Source: Candidatus Woesearchaeota archaeon | Lineage (GTDB): Archaea > Nanobdellota > Nanobdellia > Woesearchaeales > DSVV01 | DNA: 64,000 nt | Direction of reading: 5' to 3' | NCBI GenBank assembly: GCA_018661705.1 | Contig: JABJHR010000015.1 | Coordinates: 3,525-67,524 of the forward strand | Part shown: in pieces, positions 18,863 to 38,171 of the stretch | How the letters are laid out: each line of letters opens with the position of its first letter | Numbering within the stretch: position 1 is the first letter of the stretch | Notes under the pieces: generated by a model | The model's database searches: none | What the model saw: the letters and a program-made list of their open reading frames with translations, nothing else | What the model was told of the DNA's origin: nothing | Made by a program: the position numbers and the translations under genes

Positions 18863-20470
18863 TTATTCTACATAATAAATACTCTTTACTTCTTCATACT
18901 TTTTTTCAAATACAAGTTTATTATTAGGATTCTCTTTTATCTTACTAAATAGTTCTGGTTTTAATTTATCTCTACAATCATTATCAAAGCATACAAAAGG
19001 ACCTGGTATAAAGACAATTGCTGTTACTTGTTCTTTTAATTCAGATGTATCCTTCTTGCTTATCCATTTGTCATATATTGGACTAGCTTCTATTGTAGAA
19101 AAGTAATATGGTATCATTTTAATATCTGTGTAAGCAACATGTACTGGATCTGCTGTTAATATTACTCCTTCAAAATTGTCTGGGAAAAAGTTATAGTATT
19201 CGTCAACAATCACAGGTTTTTCTGCAGGAAATGAATTATATTTTTGATAATTCATATACATTGAACTTCCAAATGAATAGATTATGAAAATGATTAAAAG
19301 AGCGATAGGTAAGATCTTTAACCATGTTTGTTTAATTGTGATGTTGTGATTTGCTGTCTTTTTGTTTGTTTGTGAGAAAATTAATTCCAGAACTTGATTT
19401 AGGCCATAACCACTTAAAATTGCTAAAAAAGGAATAATTACTATTCCAAACCTTGCTTGTTTATTTACTATAATTGTTAAGTAACTATAAAACAAAATAA
19501 TAGACAAAACAATAATTATGAGCTTGTTGTAAGTTTTATTGATTGGTTTTTTTCTTATAATCTGCCAAATAGCAATAACAAAACCAAGCACACCTAAACA
19601 AAGCAAAAGATTATGCTGCAATAATGCAATTAAGTAAAAAAATAATCCTGTAATCTTACTCTCTACGGCGTGTACTAAATTTCCTCCATGGGAAAATGCA
19701 CTAATAAATGGGTATAGGGCAGAACCATACTTGTAATAATTAAAAATAAATAATACAATTATCAATGGCAAAAATCCACTCAGGAAATAGGTAAAATCTT
19801 TGATTAACCTTTTTATTCTTATTTTTAGTTGTTTAGGTTGTTTAAATTGTTCTTTACTTAGTAAAAACTCAAGGAGTAATGTGAGAAGGCAGATTAGAAC
19901 TATCAATCCTTGAGGGTAACGAAAGATAAATGCTAATGCCGCCCCTAAACCAGCCCAGAATAATTGTTTCTTAATAAAAAAGTATGTTGCTAATAATACG
20001 AAAAATGTTGAAGGGACTCCAGTCATTAATCTTAAGCTATTATAAAAAAATAATGGTGTGATGACGTAAATTACAATATTGATAGAAGCAATCTTTTTAT
20101 TGAAGATTTCTTTTGAAATTAGATAAACTAATGAGATTGTGCCTATACTAAACAACAACTCAATAACTCTGCCGGCAATTACTGGATTAAGACCCAGTTT
20201 CCATGCCCCTCCAAATAATAATGGAATCCCTAATGGTCTGATCTCTTCCCATAATCCCACTTGGCCAGAAGAGAAAAGATATTTACCAATTCCAATATAA
20301 ACAGCTTCATCCCACAATACAAAATGATACTTTAATATGAGATGTGAAACATAAGCTACTAAAAAAGTTAATACTATAACATAGAACCAATTAATGTTTT
20401 TGACTCTTTTCAAGATTTTCAAAAAGCCTTTATTCTTTGTTTTAACTAAATTCAACATTAATATCACCAA
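18863..20470 (-). CDS. Polytopic membrane glycosyltransferase, GT-C fold (PMT/ArnT/AglB-like)
   Basis: 535 aa with more than 10 TM helices in the N-terminal two-thirds and a soluble C-terminal domain. Architecture only; no catalytic motif was verified. Confidence 0.5.
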   Translation of the reverse strand: MVILMLNLVKTKNKGFLKILKRVKNINWFYVIVLTFLVAYVSHLILKYHFVLWDEAVYIGIGKYLFSSGQVGLWEEIRPLGIPLLFGGAWKLGLNPVIAGRVIELLFSIGTISLVYLISKEIFNKKIASINIVIYVITPLFFYNSLRLMTGVPSTFFVLLATYFFIKKQLFWAGLGAALAFIFRYPQGLIVLICLLTLLLEFLLSKEQFKQPKQLKIRIKRLIKDFTYFLSGFLPLIIVLFIFNYYKYGSALYPFISAFSHGGNLVHAVESKITGLFFYLIALLQHNLLLCLGVLGFVIAIWQIIRKKPINKTYNKLIIIVLSIILFYSYLTIIVNKQARFGIVIIPFLAILSGYGLNQVLELIFSQTNKKTANHNITIKQTWLKILPIALLIIFIIYSFGSSMYMNYQKYNSFPAEKPVIVDEYYNFFPDNFEGVILTADPVHVAYTDIKMIPYYFSTIEASPIYDKWISKKDTSELKEQVTAIVFIPGPFVCFDNDCRDKLKPELFSKIKENPNNKLVFEKKYEEVKSIYYVE

Positions 20471-22640
20471 AAGTAACTTGGTTAGGAAATTCTTTGAACA
20501 TTAAATAACCATATGGGTATGGGGCAGAATGAAATAAAATTGCGTTGTTTTGAATGGAGGTATTTAACCATGATTTAAGTTTATGATAATCATCAGAGTT
20601 AAAAATTCTTGTTGCAATTACATCTGCATTATTATCAATGGCAGCTTTAGTTAATCTCTCTGTTTGATTAAAATCATTTATTGTAATGTAAACAGGCTTT
20701 ATCTTAGTAATTTTAGATAATTCTGAGAAGTAATCAGCAGGGGTTTGATAATACCATAAAGCATAAGGTTTATTTGTAGAGTTTACAACAATAATTTTTT
20801 CATTAAGATTAATTTTTAATGGTTGACCACCAATAATCGCTTTTCCTCCCTTACCATTATCAGTTTCTATAATTTTCAGAGGTGGAGACATTAGCACGTT
20901 ATTTTTAGTTTTTGTGTCTTGATTTTTTAACATAAGATAACTAAATTTATCTGTAAAACATATAACCTTCTTATTTTTCTTAGCAAGATATGTTGCTGCT
21001 TTTATTTTTGCTGGATGATCACAACAACCAATAACAATGCTGGCATTTTTTCTAATAGCTTGTTCTACTAACATATTAATGCCGTGTGTATCAATTATTA
21101 TGGCAACATCTTTCCTTAAGAATCTGGTTGTTGGATAAAGAACTTTATCAAGAGGCACTTCAAATATAAATTCTCCTTTTTCATTCGGTGCAAACCATTT
21201 TCCTGCATTCTCCATAACTATTGTGCCTGTTGCAAGTTTATTTTCAACACCTGTTAATTTTAATTCTTTTATTCTTCCCCCTTCGTGCCATCCTATATCT
21301 TCTCTTAACTCTTCTTTATCATAAATTAGTTTCTCAGAAAATGTGGCAAGAATTTCTTTACTTGTTGGATTTTTAATTTCTAATCCTAACCAATCTCTTG
21401 TAACTCTATCAACTTGTGAAACAATTATGTCTTTATTTGTTATTTCTACCATGGTTTTTCCTAAGGCCATAGTGTTTGCTTTTTTTAATTCTTTTAATGG
21501 CGGTTTATCTGATAGGGTTTCTTCTGCTTGTGTTGCACTAAATTCAAAATTTGTTTTAAAGCTAATTGGTAATGGTTTGTTGTTTGCAAGTGCATGATCT
21601 ATCTCTGCCCTAATATTATTTCCTACTTTTTTCCAAGAATTAGAAGCTAATTCTAAAAACGCTTTTTTATTTCTACCACAACCAATGGCAACAGTTGTTT
21701 CATAAATAATTGCTTTTAACTCCTCATCTTGTGTTTCTAATGCTGCTTGATCATAATACTTTAATGAGTCACACATCATGCTAACATTTTCTGTTAACCT
21801 TCCTAACATAAATGTTAATTCTGCTATTGTTAAGGAATTATTTGAGTCAAGAGAATAATTAATTTTTGCTTCATCTAAAATCTTGTTTGTTTCTTCAATA
21901 TATTGTGTTTTATTTATGCCTATGCTTTGAAATAAATAATTGAAATCATAATCCTGCGCATATTTATCTGTTGTTGAGTTTCTAATTATCTCTTTTATAG
22001 TTGCGTTTATCTCTCCACCATATTTAAACTCCTCTATCTTAATGTCATTGATTATCATTGTTGGGGCAGTTGTAATGTTATGACTTTTAACAAGAGATGG
22101 AACTAACGGTTCATCTTCATAATCTTTGTCTAATGAAAGAACCACAACATTATCCTTGTATGATTGGCTAACATCATCTAAAACAAAACCTTGAGTAAGA
22201 CTTTCCCCATGATCTTTTTCATAGAAAAACATGATTGTTACATAATCAGCATCACAATCTCTATTTAATTTTTTGATTAAAGAGAAAAATTCTAATTCTA
22301 ACAAGAAGTAATGTCTTTTTAGATAATCAAAATCAATTGTTTTCATCATACTTCTTCCACCAAAACTATTTAATGCAATCCCTACTTTGTGTATGTCTGT
22401 TTTAAGATCAAAAAAACGTTGATTCATAACTGCACACTTATCTCCTCCAATAAATTCAATAAACTCTTGTTCAAGAAAATAGGCGGCTTTATCAACTTCA
22501 TGTGTTTCAATTTCTCTACTGATCTCATCCATCCTATAAAAGTCCAATACATAACTCATAAGAAGTCCAATTGTAAATATCAAAATAGTTAAAACTAAGC
22601 TTGTTACAAAAATCTTTTTTTTAACTTCGTTTGGTGTCAT
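20442..22640 (-). CDS. Membrane-anchored hypothetical protein (732 aa), N-terminal domain paralogous to the next gene
   Basis: A single N-terminal TM. Residues about 30-230 align with the 22666..23301 product (FFVEQELIGE / YFLEQEFIEF; NCDSEEHIVLFYYG / DCDADYVTIMFFYE; NITGPPAVVIDH / NITTAPTMIIND). Confidence 0.5.
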   Translation of the reverse strand: MTPNEVKKKIFVTSLVLTILIFTIGLLMSYVLDFYRMDEISREIETHEVDKAAYFLEQEFIEFIGGDKCAVMNQRFFDLKTDIHKVGIALNSFGGRSMMKTIDFDYLKRHYFLLELEFFSLIKKLNRDCDADYVTIMFFYEKDHGESLTQGFVLDDVSQSYKDNVVVLSLDKDYEDEPLVPSLVKSHNITTAPTMIINDIKIEEFKYGGEINATIKEIIRNSTTDKYAQDYDFNYLFQSIGINKTQYIEETNKILDEAKINYSLDSNNSLTIAELTFMLGRLTENVSMMCDSLKYYDQAALETQDEELKAIIYETTVAIGCGRNKKAFLELASNSWKKVGNNIRAEIDHALANNKPLPISFKTNFEFSATQAEETLSDKPPLKELKKANTMALGKTMVEITNKDIIVSQVDRVTRDWLGLEIKNPTSKEILATFSEKLIYDKEELREDIGWHEGGRIKELKLTGVENKLATGTIVMENAGKWFAPNEKGEFIFEVPLDKVLYPTTRFLRKDVAIIIDTHGINMLVEQAIRKNASIVIGCCDHPAKIKAATYLAKKNKKVICFTDKFSYLMLKNQDTKTKNNVLMSPPLKIIETDNGKGGKAIIGGQPLKINLNEKIIVVNSTNKPYALWYYQTPADYFSELSKITKIKPVYITINDFNQTERLTKAAIDNNADVIATRIFNSDDYHKLKSWLNTSIQNNAILFHSAPYPYGYLMFKEFPNQVTFGDINVEFS

Positions 22641-22665
22641 TTTTTATTTTCGTAATTCAATAAAT

Positions 22666-23301
22666 TTAACTAATGCTATTTACAATTTCTTCATAGCTAG
22701 TTAATTCATTGTTAACATTTGTGTGATCTATAACTACTGCTGGTGGACCTGTAATATTATAATAACCTTCTAAGAATGTTAACTCTTTTGTATAATTAAA
22801 TTCAATTGCAAACACATTTACATCATAATTTTTAACGACTTCATCAAGAATATGCCCTTGTTCTTTTGAATCTTTATTGTCCCGTCCATAGTAAAATAAA
22901 ACTATATGTTCTTCACTGTCACAATTTTCGCTAGATGATTGATATAACAAGTAAGTTCTTATTTGCATTAAATGAAACTTTTTTTTAAGTAAAGCAAAAT
23001 TCTCCTTTCCTAAACTTGATTCCGTATTTGGATTTGTTAATAATAACCCAATATCATAAAGCTCTGTAGATAATGCATTAATTCTTTCTTTTGCTAAACT
23101 GCAATCTAATGTCTCTCCAATAAGTTCTTGCTCAACAAAAAAGCTTTCTGTATTTAGTTCTAAATGTTTTATGAAACGTACTACTTCCTCTTGGTTTCTT
23201 GTTTCTAAATGTTTTCCCAGCAATATTCCCACAACAAACACTATTGCTAAGATTATGATAATTGTTAAAAACCTTTGTTGTTTGTATTTTTTTTGCATCA
23301 T
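22666..23301 (-). CDS. Membrane-anchored hypothetical protein, paralog of the N-terminal domain of the 732-aa neighbour
   Basis: 211 aa with an N-terminal TM. The colinear similarity is listed under 20442..22640. Confidence 0.5.
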   Translation of the reverse strand: MMQKKYKQQRFLTIIIILAIVFVVGILLGKHLETRNQEEVVRFIKHLELNTESFFVEQELIGETLDCSLAKERINALSTELYDIGLLLTNPNTESSLGKENFALLKKKFHLMQIRTYLLYQSSSENCDSEEHIVLFYYGRDNKDSKEQGHILDEVVKNYDVNVFAIEFNYTKELTFLEGYYNITGPPAVVIDHTNVNNELTSYEEIVNSIS

Positions 23302-23327
23302 TATATCACCTTTTTAATATCTTTGGA

Positions 23328-24560
23328 TCACCATTGTTTTTTTGTTTTTAGGACTTCCCCAAATAATGCACCTAACCAATGTAGGACAGTTAATATTGGC
23401 AGTATTACAAAAAAAGCCCAGATTGTAAATGGAAATTTAATTTTTTCTTTTACTTCTTTATGTGCAATGTAAAATATTAATATTCCTAAAAATAGTGCAA
23501 TTAAGATTGGTACCATAATTTTAATATTTTGACCAAGTAAAAATGATTTTGGACTAGTTAAACTAAATATGTGTGACCAAAAAAATCCTTTTATTAACAT
23601 GCTTCTTCTAATTATATGATAAACATTTATTATACTGCCATAACTAACAAAAGCAACACTTCCAACTAATAATAATATCCCCATTACATTTAATGGTAAT
23701 TGGAAGTATGCAAAAAACCCATACTTTTTGTTGAGAAACATTTTTCTATACTTTGTATGGCTTTCTACAAAACCTCTATACCATCTAACTCTTTGTCGCC
23801 ATAATGTCCAGAAACTAGCTGGAACAGAGGTATAAGTTAATGCACTTGTTTCAATATCAATGTCATAACCATAAAACTTTAATCTCATGGCTATTTCAAA
23901 GTCCTCTGTTAAACTTTTTTCATCAAATCCCCCTATTTTGCTTAATATTTTAGTTCTGTATACGCTTAATACACCAGGGGTTACGGAAAGAGTTTTGATA
24001 AAACCCATGAGTTTTCTTGTAATAACTGCTATAATATACTCCATTCTTTGTAATTTTTCATATAGGTTTTTAGGTTTATCAACCATAATAGAGCTAATTG
24101 TAGCACCCATGTTTTTATCTTCAAAATGTTTAACCATTCTCTTCAATGAATCTTCTTTTACATAAGAATCAGCATCAAGGCAAGCAAATAATTCTGTTTT
24201 GCATTTTGCAAGTGCTATGTTTAAAGCAGCTGCTTTTCCTTGATTTTTAGTATTAATTAATGTGAAATTATATTTCTTTTTTAGTGATTCAACTATTTTT
24301 CTTGTTTTATCAGTTGAACCATCATTAACAACTACTATTTTTAGTTTGTTCTTTGGATAATCTAAGTTAAAAGCAGAAATAATTGTTTTTTTAATTCCTT
24401 TTTCTTCATTGTATGCAGGAATTACAATTGTAACCTCTGGTGTTTCTTTCTTTTTAGGGTCTCTTGGTTCATATAAATGTAAAAAGCTAATCCACACTAT
24501 TGTTATGTACAAGCTAATGAAAACAATTATGGCAATTAAAATGCTTGTAATATTAATCAT
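23328..24560 (-). CDS. Processive GT2 glycosyltransferase (cellulose/chitin synthase-like)
   Basis: A TM N-terminus, GT-A motifs (VNDGSTD, LDADS) and the Q-x-x-R-W motif (RQRVRWYRGF), with C-terminal TM helices. Confidence 0.75.
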   Translation of the reverse strand: MINITSILIAIIVFISLYITIVWISFLHLYEPRDPKKKETPEVTIVIPAYNEEKGIKKTIISAFNLDYPKNKLKIVVVNDGSTDKTRKIVESLKKKYNFTLINTKNQGKAAALNIALAKCKTELFACLDADSYVKEDSLKRMVKHFEDKNMGATISSIMVDKPKNLYEKLQRMEYIIAVITRKLMGFIKTLSVTPGVLSVYRTKILSKIGGFDEKSLTEDFEIAMRLKFYGYDIDIETSALTYTSVPASFWTLWRQRVRWYRGFVESHTKYRKMFLNKKYGFFAYFQLPLNVMGILLLVGSVAFVSYGSIINVYHIIRRSMLIKGFFWSHIFSLTSPKSFLLGQNIKIMVPILIALFLGILIFYIAHKEVKEKIKFPFTIWAFFVILPILTVLHWLGALFGEVLKTKKQW

Positions 24561-24594
24561 GACTTAATCCTCTTTTTCTTGTTTTAATTTTGTA

Positions 24595-26061
24595 TTATTT
24601 TGTTTTTTCATATCTCCAAAGCTCTACATTTGGATTTACAAAAATTCTTTTAAACTTATTTGAATTTTCTAATAAAAATAACATGCCTTGTTCATCTTTT
24701 TCCCAAGTTAAACCATTTTTCATTTCTTTTGTGATTAAAATATAATTAATATTGTATCTTTGAAGTAATTCTTCAACTTTTTTTAAGGATCGTGATTGAA
24801 ATAATGTATCTACAAGACTTAAATAATAATCATAATCATCTATAAACTTACTTTTTGAGTCAATTAGAACTTTTCGTTCTGTATAGTATTTAACAATATT
24901 TCCATATGATGGATGTGTAAGAATAATTTCATCTTGAGGAACTTGTTTTCTTACATTAGATAATGCACTTATGAATTCAGCATTTGGTTCTAGCATAGCT
25001 GTTCTTTTAATAAATGAAACCCCTGAAAAAACAATGCCCAAAATAATAATCAACACAGTAATTTGTTTTATTAATTTAAGTTCCCATTTCATTTCAAACA
25101 AAAACAAGAAGCCAAGGCCTGCAAAGATCATAACTATGAAATTTAGATAGCTCACATATTGATGATATACAAATGAAAATACAAATAACAAGATTAGAAG
25201 CAAATAAACTAAAATGTATCTTCTAGTATATTTATCTTGCCAGGTTTTAATTATTCCAAATACACCAAGTATTAATGCAAAAATTCCAAAGCCTTGCGTG
25301 CTCCCTAAATCAGTGATGTATGTTTGTAATATATTTGAAGAAATTATTTGTGTTTTAATAAAACCAAATTTATAATAAACTGGTAGGTAATAATAAAGAG
25401 AAAGCAGTGTGGAAGCAGCCCCTAAAAGCAATGCATATTTCCATTTTTTATTCACATAGGTGTCATAACCTAAAATTAATACAACTCCAATTATTGTATG
25501 AATAATACCAAAAGATGATAATATCAGATAAGGTATTGCTGCAAGATATCTTAAATAATTAATTTTTCGGCTTGAAAATAAGTAAAATCCTAATAATTGT
25601 AGAAAAATAATAAAATAAGTTTGGTCTGGAATTAAAAACGTACGGAGGAATAATGGGGAAAGAATTAATATCATTAATATTGCAAATCTTTGAAAATAAA
25701 CAATTTTAAACCTTTTTAGAATCCTGTTAAATAAAAATACACTTAATAATCCTAATATCATTGCTAATATAAAACTAAGCCACCCTATTGAGACATATCC
25801 ATTTAGAAAACCTAACATTTTATGATATGGTGTGGTAATAACTGGCTTATAAGGAACAATTAAATTATCATGTGGAAGATCTGCAGTAAAAAACTCTTTA
25901 TTTTGTGTTGCAACATAAATATCATAATAACTTTCATCACCCGGTAATATTGGTGCATCTTGTATATATCTTGCAACAGTAGGTATTAATAATAAGATAA
26001 ATGTAACTATTAGGATGTGTGTGAGATAATTCTTTTGTTTTATGTATTTTTTTAATTCCAT
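24595..26061 (-). CDS. Polytopic membrane protein (GT-C-like, hypothetical)
   Basis: 488 aa with about 11 TM helices and a soluble C-terminal domain. It is tandem with a similar gene. Confidence 0.45.
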   Translation of the reverse strand: MELKKYIKQKNYLTHILIVTFILLLIPTVARYIQDAPILPGDESYYDIYVATQNKEFFTADLPHDNLIVPYKPVITTPYHKMLGFLNGYVSIGWLSFILAMILGLLSVFLFNRILKRFKIVYFQRFAILMILILSPLFLRTFLIPDQTYFIIFLQLLGFYLFSSRKINYLRYLAAIPYLILSSFGIIHTIIGVVLILGYDTYVNKKWKYALLLGAASTLLSLYYYLPVYYKFGFIKTQIISSNILQTYITDLGSTQGFGIFALILGVFGIIKTWQDKYTRRYILVYLLLILLFVFSFVYHQYVSYLNFIVMIFAGLGFLFLFEMKWELKLIKQITVLIIILGIVFSGVSFIKRTAMLEPNAEFISALSNVRKQVPQDEIILTHPSYGNIVKYYTERKVLIDSKSKFIDDYDYYLSLVDTLFQSRSLKKVEELLQRYNINYILITKEMKNGLTWEKDEQGMLFLLENSNKFKRIFVNPNVELWRYEKTK

Positions 26062-26070
26062 TTTTTGTAT

Positions 26071-27573
26071 TTAATTAATCATCATACTTTTTATAACTCT
26101 ACACTTGTTTCTGAATATTTGGACACTATTTACTTTATTGCTAACAAAACATTTATCACCCTCTACACTTAATTTTTTGATCTTGTGTTCTTGAGCATTT
26201 TCTGGAGTAAACACCATGTAATCTACATGATACTTATCTAAAATTTCATTTACTTTTATTTTGGAGATTGTTGTGAATAATACATCTAAATCTGATACTA
26301 CTTCATTTGCATTTTCTAAAAATAAGAAGTTAGAGTCTGCAAGATTTTTTCTTTCAGAAAAGTAAGTTACTGCATGTCCCTCTGATATTGAGGAGGCAAT
26401 TCTTGCATCTATTGGTGAGTTTTCTTTCAATTTATTAAGAGCTAAAATTAAATCTGGATTTGTTTGTTCTTGAATAGTTGTTTTTGCAAGCATGATTGAA
26501 GGAACAATGGATGTCGCAATGAATAAAATACATATTAATACAAACAAAGGTTTTTCTATGTATGCAAATCTTGTTGTTTTCAGATAATTATTCAAATGAT
26601 TGTAGGCAATTCCAAATAAAATTACAAGAATAACCCCTAAAAATATAAGTGCAAATTCTAATTTAATTAGTTTCATCCATAATAGGCAAGTTGTTGTTAA
26701 AGCAAAGCTAATAAGTAAATACACTTTTTTATTTTTCCTGTTGAAAAGATAATGATAAGTGATAAATAATCCCAGAACAAACGGAATTATACCAATTAAG
26801 TAAATTGCTTCCCAAATAGGGATCTGATGAAAATATGTTGTGAGGTATTTTGTTGGCATGTTTTGCCAGATAAAGCTAAATCCGTGTTTTAAAAAAGCTT
26901 TCTTGAACACTAACAAATACATCCAAAGCATGACAAATGCTGAAAATAATGTAGTTTCAATCTCAGATTGTTTTAATTTTAAATCTTCTATCTTAACTAA
27001 AACCAAATAAACAATAAGAGATAAAACAAGTAAGATAACTGATGTGTGTGTTAACATCAGAAAGATTATAGTAATTAAAAATAATTTTGTATTTGCACCT
27101 TTATCAATATTAATAAATAAATATAGTAATAACACACTCAATGGAACTGATATTGAGTAAAGGCTAATGGTATTTAATGTTTTATAGAAGTATATTGGAA
27201 TAAAAGCAGAGAAAACAGAAGTAAACAATGAAATATTTTCATTCTTAGTGATTTCTTTAACAAGTAAATAAACTACAAACACAATCGAGCTTGCAAATAA
27301 GTTAGGTAAAACTTTTGCAACAATTATTGGATTGAACAATGTAGTGAAAAATGCAAGGATGTAATGAAATAATGGCAAAAAAACATGTGTTCTACCACCA
27401 TAACTAAGATTATCTCCATACAATGGCACAAAAGTTTCTTTTATGTGCTCAATTTGCCTTAATGTAAAATAAGAGTAATCATCACTAAAATAGTCAGCTT
27501 GAAAGGCAAAAAATATTCTAATTCCTGCCACAATTATGAATATTGCTAATAAAATACCCCACTCTTTCTTCAT
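26071..27573 (-). CDS. Polytopic membrane protein (GT-C-like, hypothetical)
   Basis: 500 aa with the same architecture as the upstream neighbour (TM bundle plus a C-terminal soluble domain of about 120 aa). Confidence 0.45.
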   Translation of the reverse strand: MKKEWGILLAIFIIVAGIRIFFAFQADYFSDDYSYFTLRQIEHIKETFVPLYGDNLSYGGRTHVFLPLFHYILAFFTTLFNPIIVAKVLPNLFASSIVFVVYLLVKEITKNENISLFTSVFSAFIPIYFYKTLNTISLYSISVPLSVLLLYLFINIDKGANTKLFLITIIFLMLTHTSVILLVLSLIVYLVLVKIEDLKLKQSEIETTLFSAFVMLWMYLLVFKKAFLKHGFSFIWQNMPTKYLTTYFHQIPIWEAIYLIGIIPFVLGLFITYHYLFNRKNKKVYLLISFALTTTCLLWMKLIKLEFALIFLGVILVILFGIAYNHLNNYLKTTRFAYIEKPLFVLICILFIATSIVPSIMLAKTTIQEQTNPDLILALNKLKENSPIDARIASSISEGHAVTYFSERKNLADSNFLFLENANEVVSDLDVLFTTISKIKVNEILDKYHVDYMVFTPENAQEHKIKKLSVEGDKCFVSNKVNSVQIFRNKCRVIKSMMIN

Positions 27574-28346: not shown

Positions 28347-28443
28347 ATTTTAATTTTAATTTTGTTTATGCTAATTTCTTAGGTATGTTTTGTAATTTTA
28401 TTGAATGTTTATTATTTGAAATAAAAAAATCCTAGTGAAAAAA

Positions 28444-28478
28444 AGCCTGGCGGCGAGTGTAGAAGAGTATTTTCATAA
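28444..28478. repeat. Family B-like fragment adjacent to repeat A2
   Basis: gcctggcggcgagtgtagaagagtattttcata resembles the B core GCCCTGGTGTAGAAGAATTATACA. Confidence 0.3.
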
Positions 28479-28488
28479 TTTTTTTAAT

Positions 28489-28571
28489 ACAAAAAACAAT
28501 AAAGGCCAGGCGAAGCGAAGCTGAGTAGGACTTTTGAAAAAAGTCCGTCTGTGCCATTATTGTTGTTTTTT
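28489..28571 (+). repeat. Family A GC-rich palindromic intergenic repeat, copy A2
   Basis: caaaaaacaataaa|GGCCAGGCGAAGCGAAGCTGAGTAGGACTTTTGaaaAAAGTCCGTCTGTGCC|attattgttgttttttg. Confidence 0.6.
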
Positions 28572-28695
28572 GTTATTCTACTGTATTCTGAAAATAAACA
28601 TTAGGTCCAAAGGACGTGTTTCCCGTGATTTTTTTCTTTCTAATTATAATAAAATCATCAAAACATTTAAATAACTAATAACAAATAAACAACTT

Positions 28696-29955
28696 ATGAA
28701 AAAAGAGGAGTTTTATGCATTAATGGCTGTTATCATAGTTATTGGTGGGTTGATTGTTGTTGTATTTAGTGATTCTGACAAAGTTGGTCAAGGTATTCAA
28801 GCAGTTAGTACATTAAAAACACTTTCTGAAATTAAATGTTATGACAAAGATGATGGAATTAATTTTGAAGTTGCGAGTGAAACAGCAGGATTAATGAAAC
28901 TGCGTAATGGTCTTGAGCAATATAGTGTTAAGAAAGATGGGTGTTTAAATGAAAAAGTTGTTGAGTATTATTGCGATGCGCAATATATTAAAGTAGAACT
29001 TGGTGTTTGTGATGCAGGGAAAACTTGTATTAGTGGTAAATGTCAAAAAATGAGTATGTTAAAGAAAATTGTGCCGCCAAGAATTGATCCTTCTTTTTTA
29101 AAACCAAAAAGAAGAGTTATAGAAAAAGTATTTATTCCAAATAATTGGGTTGTTCCAGACATAGTAAGTCCTTATAAGGAATCAGGAGAAGAATGTGAAA
29201 CTCATGTAGAATGTAAAAGTAAAACCTGTACTAAACCAGTTGATCAATTAATGGATTCTGGTTCTGAAAATTATTGTGCATATATCTCTGAAGAAATTAA
29301 ATATTGGTTACAATCAGGACAACAAACACAAGCTAACAAGTTTATTAATCAAAATTTAGTTAATTTTCCAACACAAGGGAAAACTAATGAAGAAGTTTTA
29401 AAGTCAATTTCTAAATGGATTCATAATAATATTATGGATAACGTTAATTTAAGTAGTACTGAAAAAGGAGCTTATACTGCAGAAGATTATGTTTCTAATC
29501 AAATTGATGCACAAGGTTGTACGGATTTTGGTGTTATTTTTGCTGCATTTGCAAGAGCAAAAGGTTTTCCTACAATTTTAGTTGAAACTTATTCGTTAGC
29601 ATACCTTCATGAATTAGAACAAGGTAATAAACCAAACTATATTCCTGGGCATTTCTTTGCTAATGTTTATTTTGGTGGAGAATGGCATGTTTATAATCCA
29701 AATAATAATGATGGTGTGGGTGGGACAGGTACTTTTTTAACTCCAATTTATAATGAAGATTGTTTTGAGGACGATTCTTTATCTGGTCCTGAAGGTTGTT
29801 ATGAATTTGTAAATTCTTATAACGAAAATCTAGAATTAGATTATCAAAAATATGTTGTTACTAACAAAGGCCTAGATTTCTGGGATATGCATGGAGAAGG
29901 AAGTTGTATTGTTGATGCAAATACTGCATTGTTAGGGGTTTATGGATTACAGTAG
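28696..29955 (+). CDS. Secreted transglutaminase-like (Cys-His-Asp core) protein with N-terminal Cys-rich module
   Basis: N-terminal signal/TM anchor. A six-Cys module of about 70 aa (CYDKDDGIN...DGC...VEYYC...C..GK.C.SGKC) is shared with the next gene. A transglutaminase-like core follows (QGCTDFGVIFAAFARAKG ... HFFANVYFGGEWHVYNP). Confidence 0.55.
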   Translation: MKKEEFYALMAVIIVIGGLIVVVFSDSDKVGQGIQAVSTLKTLSEIKCYDKDDGINFEVASETAGLMKLRNGLEQYSVKKDGCLNEKVVEYYCDAQYIKVELGVCDAGKTCISGKCQKMSMLKKIVPPRIDPSFLKPKRRVIEKVFIPNNWVVPDIVSPYKESGEECETHVECKSKTCTKPVDQLMDSGSENYCAYISEEIKYWLQSGQQTQANKFINQNLVNFPTQGKTNEEVLKSISKWIHNNIMDNVNLSSTEKGAYTAEDYVSNQIDAQGCTDFGVIFAAFARAKGFPTILVETYSLAYLHELEQGNKPNYIPGHFFANVYFGGEWHVYNPNNNDGVGGTGTFLTPIYNEDCFEDDSLSGPEGCYEFVNSYNENLELDYQKYVVTNKGLDFWDMHGEGSCIVDANTALLGVYGLQ

Positions 29956-30226
29956 ATAACAGCTGTTCTAACTTTTTTATTTAGCAAATTAAAAAAATAT
30001 AATCGGCCAAATGAAAAAGAACATTATTTTTTGAATTGTGTTTGGTTCTGGAACAAAAAACCCACCACTGATTGCAACATATAAACCAATAATGAAATAT
30101 ATTACTACTAGCCAGAACCACCATTTCTTAATTAGTTTTTTACATTCCATGTTTTTATTATTATTTTTTCAGTTTATATGTTTTTCTACAAAAGTTTTAA
30201 ATATGATATAATATAATTATAGATAT

Positions 30227-33200
30227 ATGAAAAAAGAGTTTAAGATTATCTTTATTATTTTAATGCTTGTTTTAGCTGTATTTCTAACTGCATGTGATGG
30301 TGATTTAGCAGGGGAAGCACGTAAAGCAATAAAGAGAGTAAAAGGTTTACCAGCATATGATAATGTTAAGATAAAATGTACTGATTCTGATGGTGGAATA
30401 AACCTGAATGAAAAAGGAATTACAAAAGGAATGTATAGGGGCAAATATAAAATAAAAAGAGATGGTTGTAATAAAAGAGGAAAGGTTGTTGAGTATTTTT
30501 GTGATAGAAATAATAAGGTAAAAAGGATTGTTAAGAAATGCCCTAGTGGTGGTAAGTGTTATAAAGGTAGTTGTTTAAAATGTACTGATTCTGATGGTGG
30601 AATAAACCTAGAAGAAAAAGGTGAAACAAAAGGATTAATCTTGATGAAAAATGGAAAAAAGAAACAGGTTACTAAAAATGATTATTGTAAAAGAGGTAAG
30701 TTGAGAGAATACTTTTGTGGTCGCGATAATAAAATTAAATCTAAACTAAAAAGTTGTGATGGTGGTGGGGTTTGTGAATCTGGTGAATGTGTGGGGGGTT
30801 CTTTATGGACGTCTCTAGATGGTCCGCCTGGAGCAGGAAGAATAAGAAAATTAATCCAAAATCCTAACCAGCCTTATGAATTATACACACTTAACCGTCT
30901 AGGAGTTTATAAGTCTGTAAATAAGGGAGAAAACTGGCAATTAATTATTGATTCTAAAAATGTTGAAGTTGAGTCTATTGTTATTTTTGAAGATAAATTG
31001 TTTGTTTCTGGTGATGGTGTTTATTATTTAAATGAAGGTAATAATGATTTAATTAAAATTAATGGTGGTTGGTGGAATGAAATATTTGTAAGTGATAACA
31101 AACTTTTGATTTCTAGAAGAGACGGGGCAATTGAAGACGTTAAACTAATGTATGTAGATTTGGAGAATTCGTATACGGATTTGGATTCTTCCGACTGGAA
31201 TTATATCTCCCCCTCTGTTGAAGAATTAATAGATTTAGAGCCACCAAGTGAGAGCCAATACCAATTTAGTGTAGGAATTCCTCAAGTCTTAGCAATTGAA
31301 AACAGAATTTTTGCTAATGTTATTCTTGAAGTTGATGAAGCAAGCGAGTACACTAATGGTCATTTGTATGTCTCAAAGAATAATGGGGAAACATGGGATA
31401 AAGTTGATCTTGACCTTGATATTCCTCCTAACAAAATTCAGCCAATTATTAGTAATATTATCCAAAATCCTAATAATCCAAACCATATTTTATTGATGTT
31501 AAGGCATCCCATTATTCATGAATATAAATATCCTATTTCTCAATTATTAAGAGAATCTTATGATGGTGGAATAACTTGGCAACCAGTAACAGATTTAGAT
31601 GATATAGAATCTAATGGATTTCTTGGTGGAAGTATAGATGGATTGATTTATTATTTACTGGATGCTTATAGTGGTTTATCTATATTTAAATTAGATGGTT
31701 CTAATCACAAAATAATTGATATGCCAGAAATTGCTGGTCACGAAATGAGATTAGAGGATTTCCTAGTTGATCCTTATGATTCAAATATTGTATATGGAAA
31801 AACTGGACAAATTTGGGAATTTGGTTTAGTTAAGTCAGAAGATAAGATGAAAACTTGGAAAAAAATGGATAAGGATATTACAGCTTCATCACCCACTATT
31901 GTAAAAATTGATCCAACAGATCCAAACACTATTTTTACTTCTTCAAATATTCTTCAGGAAGATTACTACACTAATGACGGTGGGGTTACTTGGAAATATT
32001 TTTCACCCACAGCTTCAGTAGATGAAGTTAGCATTGATCCTCATAACCCTAATAATATTCTCATTGTAGATGAAATGACCCATGTTTTTTCCTCAAAAAA
32101 TGGGGGTCAAAATTTTGAAGAAATTAATTATAATGGATTTTATGGAAATAAAATATTTGATTTTGAAATAACTTCTGGCAATAATAAAAAAATATATGTC
32201 TCAAACTTGGGCACAGGTATTTCACAATCTGATGATTTTTCAGACTACAAAGAATTAGGTCAATGGAGTTGGAGGCATTTAACTAGTTCCTCTGATTATG
32301 CTTATGATATTGAAATTGATCCAGATGACGAGAATATTCTTTATGCCAGTTACTCACCTAAAATATTTGAAAATCATTCTGCAATCTTGAAATATGATCC
32401 TAATGATGATGGCTTTGGTTGGAGTGAAATATTAAAGGTAGAAAAATCAAAAGGAATAACCTCATTAGAATTTGATAAGATTAATTCAAATAATTTTTAT
32501 GCAGGTGTAGTTGGTGAAAAGGGAGTAATTTATCATAGCAATGATAAAGGAGATAGTTGGTCTAATTTAAATGAAGATTTAACTTTCTCAACTATTCATG
32601 CAATTGCTGTTGATCCTAATAATGAAAATGTTGTTTATGCTGCTCCTTGGGGTGGTGGTTTATTTGTTTCTCAAGATAATGGTGATTCTTGGCAAAAGAT
32701 AGAAACTCCAACAATTTCTATCCCTGCAATTATTGTTGATCCTGAATATTCTAATCACTTAATTATTGCAGATAGAACAGCACCTAAAATCTATGAGTCT
32801 TTCAATGCTGGCCAGAACTGGAACGAGCTTGTTAGTTTAGATAAAAGGGATTATTATAGGATTAGTACTATGGTTTTACATAATGGTGAACTTTATTTTA
32901 ATGTATTCAATAAAGTTACTGGTATGATCTCTTTGTTTGTTAATGGTCCTATGTCTGGGACAACATTTAAACTAGATGTTGGCGGAACATCACTTAAAAA
33001 TTCTAATGCTGGTACGCCAGTGGAAATTTCTAATGGTGTTGAGGGCGATATTATCATAAACTTTTTTTCTGATGATAATAATCTTTATTCAATTAGTCAC
33101 ATTTATGGTGTGAATAAATTAGAAGGAAGTAATTGGGTTGATATCTCTCCTGAAGTTAACATGGGTTTTAATAATATTATCTCTGATGGGGATAACAATC

Positions 33201-35020
33201 TTTACATCAGCGGGGCTTCAGATATTGATATGGATTTAAATTTTAGAATTGGTGATCCCAATATTGTTAATAATATCTATAAAAGTACAAATAATGGAGC
33301 AACTTGGGTTCCACTTTTAGAAAACAATCAATTTAATAGTGGAATTAAGAAAGTATTACAACATCCAACTAATAATAATATTCTTTTTGCTGCTACAGGT
33401 ACTGGTTTATATATTTCATTAGATCAAGGAAATAGTTGGGCTTTGCAAAATGGTTTAAACTTTAAGAACATTGGTTCAATGAGTGTTACTAATGATAATG
33501 TTTATGTTGGAACACTTGGTGGTGGTGTTTATGTTGGAAAAATAAAACCAGGTGTTATAATATCAACATTTGATGAGGGTTATGTTGGGAACATAAATCC
33601 AAATTTTTTAGTAACTTGGTCTGCTACCAATGGACCATTTCCAGAGATCTTTAACATTCAGCTAAAAGTTGATCCAACTAATTCAAATATAATTTATGCT
33701 ACTTCATTTCCTGGTGGTGTGTTTAAATCTACAGATGGTGGAATAACATGGATGGAAAGTAATTTTGCCTTGCCAAGTTTTGAAGTTCTAGATCCTTTTA
33801 CACAAGGGTATTATAGTTTAGAAATAGATCCAAATAATTCTGATGTCCTTTATTTAGGTATATTTGGTAAAGGTGTTTACAAATCAGAGGATGGGGCATC
33901 TACTTGGATTCCAATGTATGGTTCCATGGGACAAAATAAAAAAATCATGAAAAAAGGTATTACTCAAATAAAAGTTGATTCCACTGATTCAAACAAAGTA
34001 TACTTAGCAACTAATGACGGTGTTTATATCTCTGATAATGGGGCGGAAAGTTGGGAAGAGATAAATAAAGGTCTACAAACGCCTGATATAAAATCATTAA
34101 GGGTTGTTGATGATATAGTGTATGTTGGAACAGCAGGATATGGTATGTATGTTTTTAATCCAACAGAAGAAGAATGGCAAAATTTAGGAAGGACATTATC
34201 TGGTGGTTGGTGGAAACCATGGGGTAGAAGAATGTATCAATTTTCTACATTGTTATTTGATCCAGATGTGCCAGGTAAAATTTATTTTGGGAATTTCCCG
34301 GGTGGTTTTTATATTAGCGAGGATAATGGTGGTAGTTGGAAAGATTCAAGTATTGGTTTAGGAAATGACGGTGTTTTCTCTTTAAGTGTACAGCCAGATA
34401 ATCATAATATTCTTTGGGCAGGAACATATAATGGTATATCAAAATCAACAGATAAAGGAAAAACGTGGGTTATGAAAGGAAAGAATGGTGTTGAAGATTT
34501 GAAACAGAATGAAGCTTGGGAAGCTTGGGAAAATAATGTTCCTGGAATAATTCCTCCTGAGCAATGGCCCTATAATATTGTTATTGATAATAATGATCTT
34601 GAAATTATGTATATCTCAACAAAAAATGGTAGGAACATGGGGTTCTGTAATAGAAACTGTGAAAAAGAAAATTGTGATGAAAATAATTTTTGTGGGATTG
34701 TTATGAAATCAATAAATGGAGGAGAAAGTTGGTTTGAAATAATGAATGGATTAGATTGGAGCAGTGAATTTTATACTCTTATAATTTATCCGCCTAACCA
34801 TGATGTTTTATTTTTAAGTACTGATTATGGTGTTTTTCTAAGTATGGACGCAGGAAGTAATTGGGAGTCCATGGATGATGGATTACCAACTAAAAATAAT
34901 AATGTAAGAGATAATGTGGCAGATAATTTGGCTCTGAGCGTAGATAATCAATATTTATTCTTAGGCCTTGTAAAATATGGTGTTTGGAAAGCAGATTTAA
35001 GTAAGTTGGATTTATCCTAA
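30227..35020 (+). CDS. Giant secreted BNR/Asp-box repeat lipoprotein (multi-beta-propeller, sortilin/Ycf48-like) with duplicated N-terminal Cys-rich module
   Basis: Signal peptide with lipobox LTAC. Two tandem copies of the six-Cys module (CTDSDGGIN...EYFC...C..G.C). About 18 S-x-D-x-G-x-[ST]-W BNR repeats (STDGGITW, SNDKGDSW, SQDNGDSW, STDKGKTW, SINGGESW and others) spread over about 1400 aa. Confidence 0.8.
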   Translation: MKKEFKIIFIILMLVLAVFLTACDGDLAGEARKAIKRVKGLPAYDNVKIKCTDSDGGINLNEKGITKGMYRGKYKIKRDGCNKRGKVVEYFCDRNNKVKRIVKKCPSGGKCYKGSCLKCTDSDGGINLEEKGETKGLILMKNGKKKQVTKNDYCKRGKLREYFCGRDNKIKSKLKSCDGGGVCESGECVGGSLWTSLDGPPGAGRIRKLIQNPNQPYELYTLNRLGVYKSVNKGENWQLIIDSKNVEVESIVIFEDKLFVSGDGVYYLNEGNNDLIKINGGWWNEIFVSDNKLLISRRDGAIEDVKLMYVDLENSYTDLDSSDWNYISPSVEELIDLEPPSESQYQFSVGIPQVLAIENRIFANVILEVDEASEYTNGHLYVSKNNGETWDKVDLDLDIPPNKIQPIISNIIQNPNNPNHILLMLRHPIIHEYKYPISQLLRESYDGGITWQPVTDLDDIESNGFLGGSIDGLIYYLLDAYSGLSIFKLDGSNHKIIDMPEIAGHEMRLEDFLVDPYDSNIVYGKTGQIWEFGLVKSEDKMKTWKKMDKDITASSPTIVKIDPTDPNTIFTSSNILQEDYYTNDGGVTWKYFSPTASVDEVSIDPHNPNNILIVDEMTHVFSSKNGGQNFEEINYNGFYGNKIFDFEITSGNNKKIYVSNLGTGISQSDDFSDYKELGQWSWRHLTSSSDYAYDIEIDPDDENILYASYSPKIFENHSAILKYDPNDDGFGWSEILKVEKSKGITSLEFDKINSNNFYAGVVGEKGVIYHSNDKGDSWSNLNEDLTFSTIHAIAVDPNNENVVYAAPWGGGLFVSQDNGDSWQKIETPTISIPAIIVDPEYSNHLIIADRTAPKIYESFNAGQNWNELVSLDKRDYYRISTMVLHNGELYFNVFNKVTGMISLFVNGPMSGTTFKLDVGGTSLKNSNAGTPVEISNGVEGDIIINFFSDDNNLYSISHIYGVNKLEGSNWVDISPEVNMGFNNIISDGDNNLYISGASDIDMDLNFRIGDPNIVNNIYKSTNNGATWVPLLENNQFNSGIKKVLQHPTNNNILFAATGTGLYISLDQGNSWALQNGLNFKNIGSMSVTNDNVYVGTLGGGVYVGKIKPGVIISTFDEGYVGNINPNFLVTWSATNGPFPEIFNIQLKVDPTNSNIIYATSFPGGVFKSTDGGITWMESNFALPSFEVLDPFTQGYYSLEIDPNNSDVLYLGIFGKGVYKSEDGASTWIPMYGSMGQNKKIMKKGITQIKVDSTDSNKVYLATNDGVYISDNGAESWEEINKGLQTPDIKSLRVVDDIVYVGTAGYGMYVFNPTEEEWQNLGRTLSGGWWKPWGRRMYQFSTLLFDPDVPGKIYFGNFPGGFYISEDNGGSWKDSSIGLGNDGVFSLSVQPDNHNILWAGTYNGISKSTDKGKTWVMKGKNGVEDLKQNEAWEAWENNVPGIIPPEQWPYNIVIDNNDLEIMYISTKNGRNMGFCNRNCEKENCDENNFCGIVMKSINGGESWFEIMNGLDWSSEFYTLIIYPPNHDVLFLSTDYGVFLSMDAGSNWESMDDGLPTKNNNVRDNVADNLALSVDNQYLFLGLVKYGVWKADLSKLDLS

Positions 35021-37268: not shown

Positions 37269-38171
37269 CTATGATTTCAATTGTTTATTAATTTCAGCTT
37301 TTATAACTTTGTAAGGCTGTGCCCCTTGAAGTACTTCCCCATTAATTATTAATGTTGGGGTAAACTTAACTCCATTTGCTTTACCTTCTGTTATATCTTT
37401 ATCAACTTCTTCAGATTTTTCATGATTTGTTAAGCATTCCACAAATAAATCATAATCATCAAAATCCATTAACTCTGCCATATCTAATAAATCTTGTTCT
37501 GTTTCTTTTGGCAAATCACTGAAATATAACGCGTTATGAAATTCAATAAATCTATTTTGATCGTTTGCACATTCTGAAGCTTCTGCAGCAAGCTTAGACA
37601 GTGGATGTAATTCTTCGTTTGGAAATTGTTTATGATATATTAGAATTTTATTTCCAAAATCTTTTTTAATGTCTTTTAGTGTAACTTGCATCTCTGCGCA
37701 GTATTCACAATAAAAGTCAGAATACTCATAAATTGTTACTGTTTTTGTAATTGGAGTAACTGGTTGTGTATACTTATAAACAAAAAATAAAACCATCACA
37801 ATAATTACTAATAATATTAAATAACTCCAAAAGCTACCTTCTTTTTTTCCATTTTTTCCATTTTTTCCCATTACTATCACCCTTGTGTCTTCTTCACCTT
37901 TTTGTTTTTTAGGTGTAAGATTTTTTTTAGAATTTTTTTTAATTGTTTTTTTATCTGCCTCTTTTGGATCTACTTTTGCAGGTTTATTTATTATATCTTT
38001 AACTGCTTTTTTCTTTTTTTCCTCTTCTTTAATTTTTTTATCAACCACTTTTAGTTTTTCTTCAATCTTTTTTTTACCTTTTATATACTCCTCTTTTTTT
38101 ACAATGCCTGCTCTATAAGTTTTTTCAAAATGATCTAATTGTTTTTTTAACCGCTTTTTTTCGTTTTTCAT
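37269..38171 (-). CDS. Membrane-anchored DsbA/thioredoxin-like oxidoreductase with K-rich N-terminal region
   Basis: CEYC redox motif, a single TM (LILLVIIVMVLFFVY) and a lysine-rich coiled N-terminus. Confidence 0.55.
   Translation of the reverse strand: MKNEKKRLKKQLDHFEKTYRAGIVKKEEYIKGKKKIEEKLKVVDKKIKEEEKKKKAVKDIINKPAKVDPKEADKKTIKKNSKKNLTPKKQKGEEDTRVIVMGKNGKNGKKEGSFWSYLILLVIIVMVLFFVYKYTQPVTPITKTVTIYEYSDFYCEYCAEMQVTLKDIKKDFGNKILIYHKQFPNEELHPLSKLAAEASECANDQNRFIEFHNALYFSDLPKETEQDLLDMAELMDFDDYDLFVECLTNHEKSEEVDKDITEGKANGVKFTPTLIINGEVLQGAQPYKVIKAEINKQLKS

Follow-up and report, generated by a model that had tools for sequence, protein, structure and literature searches.

The DNA considered here is a stretch of 64,000 nucleotides (nt), hereafter the window (contig JABJHR010000015.1, positions 3,525 to 67,524), from a low-GC (about 30%) genome of a Candidatus Woesearchaeota, a DPANN archaeon. 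It carries two adjacent genes, A and B, whose products both bear secretion or anchoring signals and share a small six-cysteine module, present once in A and twice in tandem in B. A first-pass annotation of the window had rightly placed the organism among the DPANN and had viewed the module as a device particular to this pair of proteins, directing them to a host cell or to a surface layer (S-layer). We discuss the module from the standpoint of its sequence, its distribution and its predicted structure. The features of the pair are as follows, in window coordinates.

28696-29955, forward strand: open reading frame (ORF) A, 419 amino acids (aa), membrane-anchored transglutaminase-like protein with one module (NCBI MBT4823593.1, 'transglutaminase family protein')
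28717-28767 (aa 8-24), forward strand: N-terminal hydrophobic segment of A, signal anchor or signal peptide as read from the sequence
28837-29043 (aa 48-116), forward strand: module copy A, with cysteines 48, 83, 93, 105, 111 and 116
29377-29700 (aa 228-335), forward strand: Transglut_core domain of A (PF01841), by Pfam match
30227-35020, forward strand: ORF B, 1597 aa, multi-propeller protein of BNR/Sortilin-Vps10 type, predicted to be a lipoprotein and bearing two modules in tandem (NCBI MBT4823595.1, 'hypothetical protein')
30227-30295, forward strand: signal peptide of B with lipobox L-T-A-C23, as read from the sequence
30377-30574 (aa 51-116), forward strand: module copy B1, with six cysteines
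30581-30790 (aa 119-188), forward strand: module copy B2, with six cysteines, the copy modelled by AlphaFold2
30800-35017 (aa 192-1597), forward strand: BNR/Asp-box beta-propeller region of B, by Pfam and NCBIfam matches and Asp-boxes

Genes A and B and their three homologous modules

The three copies are 66-70 aa long and align with one another at 40-59% identity, 23 columns being invariant. Their local alignment scores of 120-200 stand against means of 28-34 for shuffled sequences (z of 17-24), and none of 2000 shuffles came near the observed values. A hidden Markov model (HMM) built exclusively from five foreign copies and applied to the six-frame translation of the window returned exactly three matches, with independent E-values of 3.9e-9, 2.2e-14 and 6e-15, and no fourth copy (next best E 0.56). 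The one-plus-two arrangement described by the first-pass annotation is thereby confirmed. At the DNA level, B1 and B2 have in common a 59-nt stretch of 88% identity, 204 nt apart, a likeness that points to tandem duplication. The shared pattern reads C-x-D-x-D-[GD]-G-I-N-x(19-24)-D-[GY]-C-x(3,4)-K-[VL]-x-E-Y-[YF]-C-x(11,12)-C-x(2)-G-x(2)-C-x(2)-G-x-C; the pattern proposed earlier agrees with it in the essentials and was slightly off in two spacings.

In protein A, the Transglut_core match lies just over the Pfam cut-off (E 3.2e-5, 24.6 bits against 23), and the same domain is carried by the A orthologues according to precomputed annotation. Assignment by inspection, made with no residue-level alignment to the model, designates Cys275 (in GCTDF) as the putative nucleophile together with His319 (in PGHFF); the position of the third residue is occupied in A and in both orthologues by Asn334 (in WHVYNP), where the family usually has Asp. 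An additional cysteine cluster, CETHVECKSKTC...C, is found outside the module at 29194-29280 (aa 167-194) and is kept in the orthologues. Protein B also possesses a cysteine cluster outside its modules, CNRNCEKENCDENNFC, at 34646-34693 (aa 1474-1489). Neither cluster is matched by the module HMM.

The N-terminus of B, MKKEFKIIFIILMLVLAVFLTAC, reads as a signal peptide closing in a lipobox that agrees with [LVI][ASTVI][GAS]C and is identical in the relative described below, so that B is a predicted lipoprotein with Cys23 as the putative lipidation site, in line with the LTAC motif noticed in the first pass. The remainder of the protein matches Sortilin-Vps10 (PF15902, E 4.5e-41, 141.5 bits against a cut-off of 33), BNR (PF02012, E 3.8e-16, 56.8 bits against 27) and the NCBIfam F510_1955 'glycosylhydrolase' model (E 8e-78, 10 matched stretches). 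Asp-boxes of the form S-x-D-x-G-x-T-W number 15 canonical and 3 near-canonical, which accounts for the earlier count of about 18. Protein chains of the PDB related to GH74 give weak sequence matches only (6p2m, E 2.6e-9; 6p2k, E 3e-5). These domain matches uphold the description of A as a transglutaminase-like enzyme and of B as a BNR multi-propeller protein.

The history of the pair can be followed in its closest relatives. The two nearest homologs of A, P0163 and P0164, are 64-65% identical to it and carry no module; all that they keep between anchor and conserved region is '...KVRC-FFGG-CQK...', which looks like C1 fused to the last hairpin by an internal deletion. The 46-kb contig of P0164 presents the gene order of the window: GT2, two polytopic membrane proteins, RadB and the transglutaminase-like gene, followed by a 1716-aa Sortilin-Vps10 protein, S2, TRAM, KH and DsbA. 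The B orthologue of this relative carries three tandem modules in its first 306 residues, against two in B. Copy B2 is 78% identical to the third of these and B1 is 62-65% identical to the first two, whereas the A module shows 36-43% identity to every B copy in both genomes. A recent transfer of the module from B to A is ruled out by these values, and the A copy must be regarded as old. Taken together, the orthologues indicate that the A-B pair is conserved, that the module is dispensable for A and that its copy number drifts. In the same relative (L108:3990-5012 and L108:5068-5985), the linker upstream of what is left of the A module, DLIGEARRNMPAYDEKKVRC, is similar to the one preceding the modules of B, DLAGEARKTIKRVQGLPADDERIEC, which hints that the neighbouring genes once recombined at their 5' ends.

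A very large family of extracellular modules

The first-pass annotation had considered the module novel, and this holds for Pfam-A 2025, NCBIfam 20 and the sequences and structures of the PDB, none of which covers it. The NCBIfam scan gave no module match. The nearest Pfam entry is DUF4860 (PF16152), which matches B2 over positions 15-68 of its 98 with 22.1-23.2 bits (E 7e-5 to 2e-4), under a gathering cut-off of 25; copies A and B1 do not match it. When 69 diverse copies were scanned singly, two matched DUF4860 at E<1 and every other family was matched by at most three; in ten proteins with 4-14 copies, no Pfam domain spans the repeats and DUF4860 is absent at E<=0.01. DUF4860 is itself without assigned function, and our literature search found no paper naming it and no description of the module. 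The module profile searched against PDB sequences returned chance-level matches only (E>=0.24). The module therefore matches no characterised family and its copies align with high significance, the two points on which the first-pass annotation had staked its proposal.

The extent of the family emerged from an exhaustive HMMER search with an eight-copy profile in 1.84 billion cluster representatives at 50% identity. It retrieved 8183 representatives at E<=1e-3, of which 2633 reach E<=1e-10 and 386 reach E<=1e-30, and a single protein may show as many as 25 matched stretches. Since single-copy proteins fall near the threshold in a database of such size, the true family is larger than 8183. In the best 150 proteins, 1086 copies were counted and many of these proteins consist of module over 80-97% of their length; among the 146 beginning with Met, 130 have a hydrophobic N-terminal segment. 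Successive modules lie close together: the linker between C6 of one and C1 of the following one most often has 4 residues, generally 3-10, and has 2 in ORF B.

The taxonomic distribution was surveyed across GTDB, each species being represented by a single genome, by means of a degenerate DNA pattern encoding C-T-D-S-D-G-G ... E-[YF]-[YF]-C. This pattern fixes a TGT codon and favours AT-rich genomes, so that GC-rich carriers are missed and the resulting picture is a lower bound. It matched 107 loci, all 107 with ORFs fitting the module HMM, and 80 of them carry a label. At least 58 of the labelled loci belong to named DPANN lineages: Woesearchaeota (28), Micrarchaeota (12), Nanoarchaeota/Nanoarchaeia (8), Pacearchaeota (3), Aenigmatarchaeota (2), Iainarchaeum (2), Bilamarchaeaceae (1), Undinarchaeota (1) and Nanohaloarchaea (1). 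The others are unclassified archaea (6), Patescibacteria-type or unclassified bacteria (9), a 'Gammaproteobacteria' metagenome-assembled genome (MAG; 1) and 'Uncultured Methanosarcinales' (6, label unconfirmed). The latter loci (L007, L030, L038, L042, L050 and L072) come from MAGs, one of them lying on a contig of 780 kb; unless these labels are mistaken, the module also exists outside DPANN. As a whole, the family appears concentrated in DPANN archaea and in bacteria of the Candidate Phyla Radiation (CPR).

In the proteins that bear it, the module is accompanied by many partner domains, all extracytoplasmic: Peptidase_S8, Laminin_G_3, Kre9_KNH, Flg_new_2, Kazal, TSP3_bac, DUF5648, Beta_helix/NosD, PG_binding_1, PA, CARDB, Cohesin, Dockerin, PKD, Big_13, CWB2 and DUF5667. 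These data are best explained if the modules of A and B belong to a very large family, still uncurated, of all-beta extracellular modules of 60-75 aa that surface proteins of DPANN and CPR/Patescibacteria commonly use as a building block.

This distribution bears directly on the idea of a shared address domain that would steer A and B to one receptor on the host cell or S-layer of a DPANN symbiont. The organism is indeed a DPANN archaeon, the genes lie side by side and keep this arrangement in a 65%-identical relative, and within the sample the A module is most similar to B2. A device specific to this pair nevertheless finds no support in a family that counts at least 8183 clusters, reaches about 25 copies in tandem and occurs in thousands of unrelated architectures, including proteins made only of modules. 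The idea is further weakened by the syntenic relative, whose A lost the module while its B gained one to reach three, and by the A module being no nearer to the B modules than to many foreign copies. We consider a common address improbable; host-surface contact is possible.

Predicted fold, conserved residues and possible roles

The structure of B2 was predicted by AlphaFold2 with the 69-sequence alignment and yielded a confident all-beta model of seven strands (mean predicted local distance difference test, pLDDT, of 96.6; predicted template modelling score, pTM, of 0.80). It replaced a poor single-sequence prediction of the B N-terminus (pLDDT 59.5). Foldseek comparison of the B2 model with the PDB produced nothing better than E 0.45 (template modelling score, TM, of 0.36) and a fold search of BFVD produced nothing; judged by these two libraries, a new fold is a possibility.

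The family consensus reads C-x-D-[ST]-D-G-G-x-[ND]-x4-G ... D-x-C ... [LV]-x-E-Y-Y-C ... C-P-x-G-x2-C-x2-G-x-C. In an alignment of 1424 copies, each of the six cysteines is found in 94-99% of the rows. The frequencies of the other conserved positions, taken among the residues present at each of them, are D 0.91 at position 4 (E otherwise), D 0.97 at position 6, G 0.91 at position 8, N or D 0.76 at position 10, G 0.90 at position 15, D 0.97 at position 29, E 0.95 at position 39 and G 0.95 at position 63; A, B1 and B2 retain all eight. Cysteine losses are paired: 19 copies lack both C4 and C6, and 2 lack both C2 and C5. This suggests disulfides between C4 and C6 and between C2 and C5, which leaves C1 to pair with C3; the C2-C5 and C1-C3 bonds are the more tentative part. 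A metal cluster or zinc ribbon was considered for these cysteines and is rejected in view of the secretion signals, the extracellular partners, the pairwise cysteine loss and the presence of a DsbA-like gene close to the pair:

37269-38171, reverse strand: membrane-anchored DsbA-like thiol-disulfide oxidoreductase with CEYC (Thioredoxin_4 9e-23, DSBA 6e-10), syntenic in the relative

This product, which has a lysine-rich N-terminal region, is likely the oxidase for cysteine-rich surface proteins, and the proximity and synteny of its gene fit an oxidising route of extracytoplasmic folding. With respect to the acidic residues, D29 and E39 face each other in the predicted strand 3/4 hairpin, and a C1-C3 disulfide would place the D-x-D-G-G loop beside them, an arrangement suggesting one cation site, probably for Ca2+, near the N-terminal end of the module.

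The role that we favour, and regard as somewhat probable, is that of a disulfide-stapled and probably Ca2+-binding stalk or adhesion module, as opposed to a dedicated targeting device. In such a scheme, the six cysteines would form three disulfides after Sec export, a reaction that the DsbA-like oxidase encoded 2 kb downstream could catalyse, and the near-invariant D4, D6, D29 and E39 together with N/D10 would hold the cation. Linkers of 2-10 residues would turn tandem copies into a stiff, protease-resistant stalk, in the manner of calcium-binding EGF arrays or of the Ig-like stalks of bacteria, though the module belongs to neither family. In A and B, where the module directly follows the membrane anchor, it would space the transglutaminase-like enzyme and the multi-propeller off the membrane, while proteins made almost entirely of modules could constitute a fibre or a multivalent adhesin. 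Tandem duplication and deletion would readily change the number of copies. Several facts weigh against this proposal. All members of the family are known from sequence and a predicted model alone, the C2-C5 pairing is based on two copies only and D-x-D-G-G is no canonical DxDxDG or EF-hand loop; moreover, the module may be N-terminal, internal or C-terminal, so that a membrane-proximal stalk does not suit every member.

The main rival explanation, which we judge possible though rather unlikely, is carbohydrate binding: a lectin-like domain, or one resembling a carbohydrate-binding module (CBM), would anchor enzymes and propellers to a glycan such as a host cell wall, an S-layer glycan or a chitin-like polymer, and arrays would provide avidity. 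The aromatic pair conserved in E-Y-Y-C could be understood in this way, but it lies within a beta-strand beside a disulfide cysteine and may belong to the core instead of the surface. The GH74/sialidase-like BNR propeller, beta-helix and Laminin_G_3 partners would also be in keeping with a glycan ligand, as would the weak Foldseek matches to cyanovirin-N and the CBM14-like neighbours; on the other hand, none of the 69 copies matches Pfam CBM_14 at E<1, the module model has no significant fold similarity to solved CBM14 structures and the cysteine spacing is unlike the peritrophin-A consensus. The existence of an A orthologue that does without the module is a further difficulty for this explanation.

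A small disulfide-rich domain could also serve as an inhibitor or toxin, for instance a protease inhibitor, in conflicts between organisms. A Kazal domain does open some multi-module proteins, and single copies give weak sub-threshold matches to FOLN, Haemadin and trypsin-inhibitor models, but these matches are scattered, concerning 1-3 of the 69 copies, and fall short of significance. Inhibitors do not typically occur in arrays of as many as about 25 copies or fused to proteases, lectin-like domains and propellers, and no variable loop resembling a reactive site was found. This function seems very improbable to us.

A more ambitious version of the stalk or adhesion proposal would see in the module a new fold, largely restricted to DPANN and CPR, acting as the principal Ca2+-dependent, disulfide-stapled adhesion or stalk element and as the physical basis of host attachment, its rapid changes in copy number tuning reach or specificity. 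In this full form, we hold it to be doubtful. Life attached to other cells characterises both DPANN archaea and CPR bacteria, of whose surface proteins, to our knowledge, very little is known. Thousands of the proteins that they secrete contain the module, often as the sole recognisable element, and it is confidently modelled. With a curated model, a substantial share of the surface proteome now called 'hypothetical' in DPANN and CPR would receive an annotation, and the module offers a small, defined and expressible target for the study of how stalks and adhesins are built. For the A-B locus itself the significance is modest: two conserved neighbouring surface proteins bear a generic module as an N-terminal extension. 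The interest would be higher if the fold proved new and if Ca2+-dependent adhesion in episymbiosis were true.

Surroundings of the pair and comparison with known systems

Several observations concern the genes and spacers around the pair. The 349-bp spacer upstream of A (28347-28695) contains GC-rich inverted repeats, GCCTGGC...GCCAGGC and AGGACTTTT...AAAAGTCC, in a genome of 30% GC. A small RNA was considered at this place and rejected, as the spacer has no Rfam or tRNA match and a weak fold z-score of -2.6. At the corresponding position the relative carries a gene for a 115-aa membrane protein (L108:3565-3912, reverse strand) that is absent from the window. The 271-bp gap between A and B accommodates, on the opposite strand, a hydrophobic ORF of 53 aa, MECKKLIKKWWFWLVVIYFIIGLYVAISGG... 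(29989-30150, reverse strand); the gap of the relative measures only 55 bp. Upstream of the pair lies a run of genes of envelope-glycosylation type (18863-27573, reverse strand), among them one for a GT2 glycosyltransferase (23328-24560) and two for polytopic membrane proteins, each about 500 aa long and with no Pfam match (24595-26061 and 26071-27573, reverse strand). The order of this run is conserved on the contig of the relative, where a PMT_2-like protein is also encoded. Farther away, an archaeal signal recognition particle RNA is found at 1676-1950 on the reverse strand (Rfam RF01857, 133 bits, full length).

Among known extracellular modules, the CBM14/peritrophin-A domains (Avr4, PDB 6bn0; Blo t 12, PDB 2mfk) are comparable in size (about 65-80 aa), beta-rich character, extracellular location and possession of six or more cysteines, but the conserved acidic motif of the module differs from them. 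The calcium-binding epidermal growth factor-like (cbEGF) repeats of fibrillin and Notch offer the closest functional analogy, without any assignment to that family. Both are small extracellular modules with six cysteines and three disulfides (by deduction in the present case), a conserved acidic cluster near the N-terminal end, very short linkers, long tandem arrays and fusions to varied extracellular domains. They differ in length and fold (about 40 aa for cbEGF against about 65 aa and seven predicted strands), in cysteine pairing (1-3, 2-4, 5-6 against the proposed 1-3, 2-5, 4-6) and in distribution, the former being metazoan and the latter found in DPANN and CPR. No EGF-type Pfam family, EGF and EGF_CA included, is among the matches of the 69 copies; a single FOLN match (E 0.0038) was obtained in one multi-module protein. 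Lastly, the PKD, CARDB, Big and TSP3_bac repeats, which share polypeptides with the module, are likewise tandem, promiscuous and variable in copy number, yet they are mostly cysteine-free Ig-like or Ca-loop repeats whereas the module is built on disulfides. Placed among these systems, it is a new and very large domain family of a familiar kind, the small disulfide-rich extracellular repeat.

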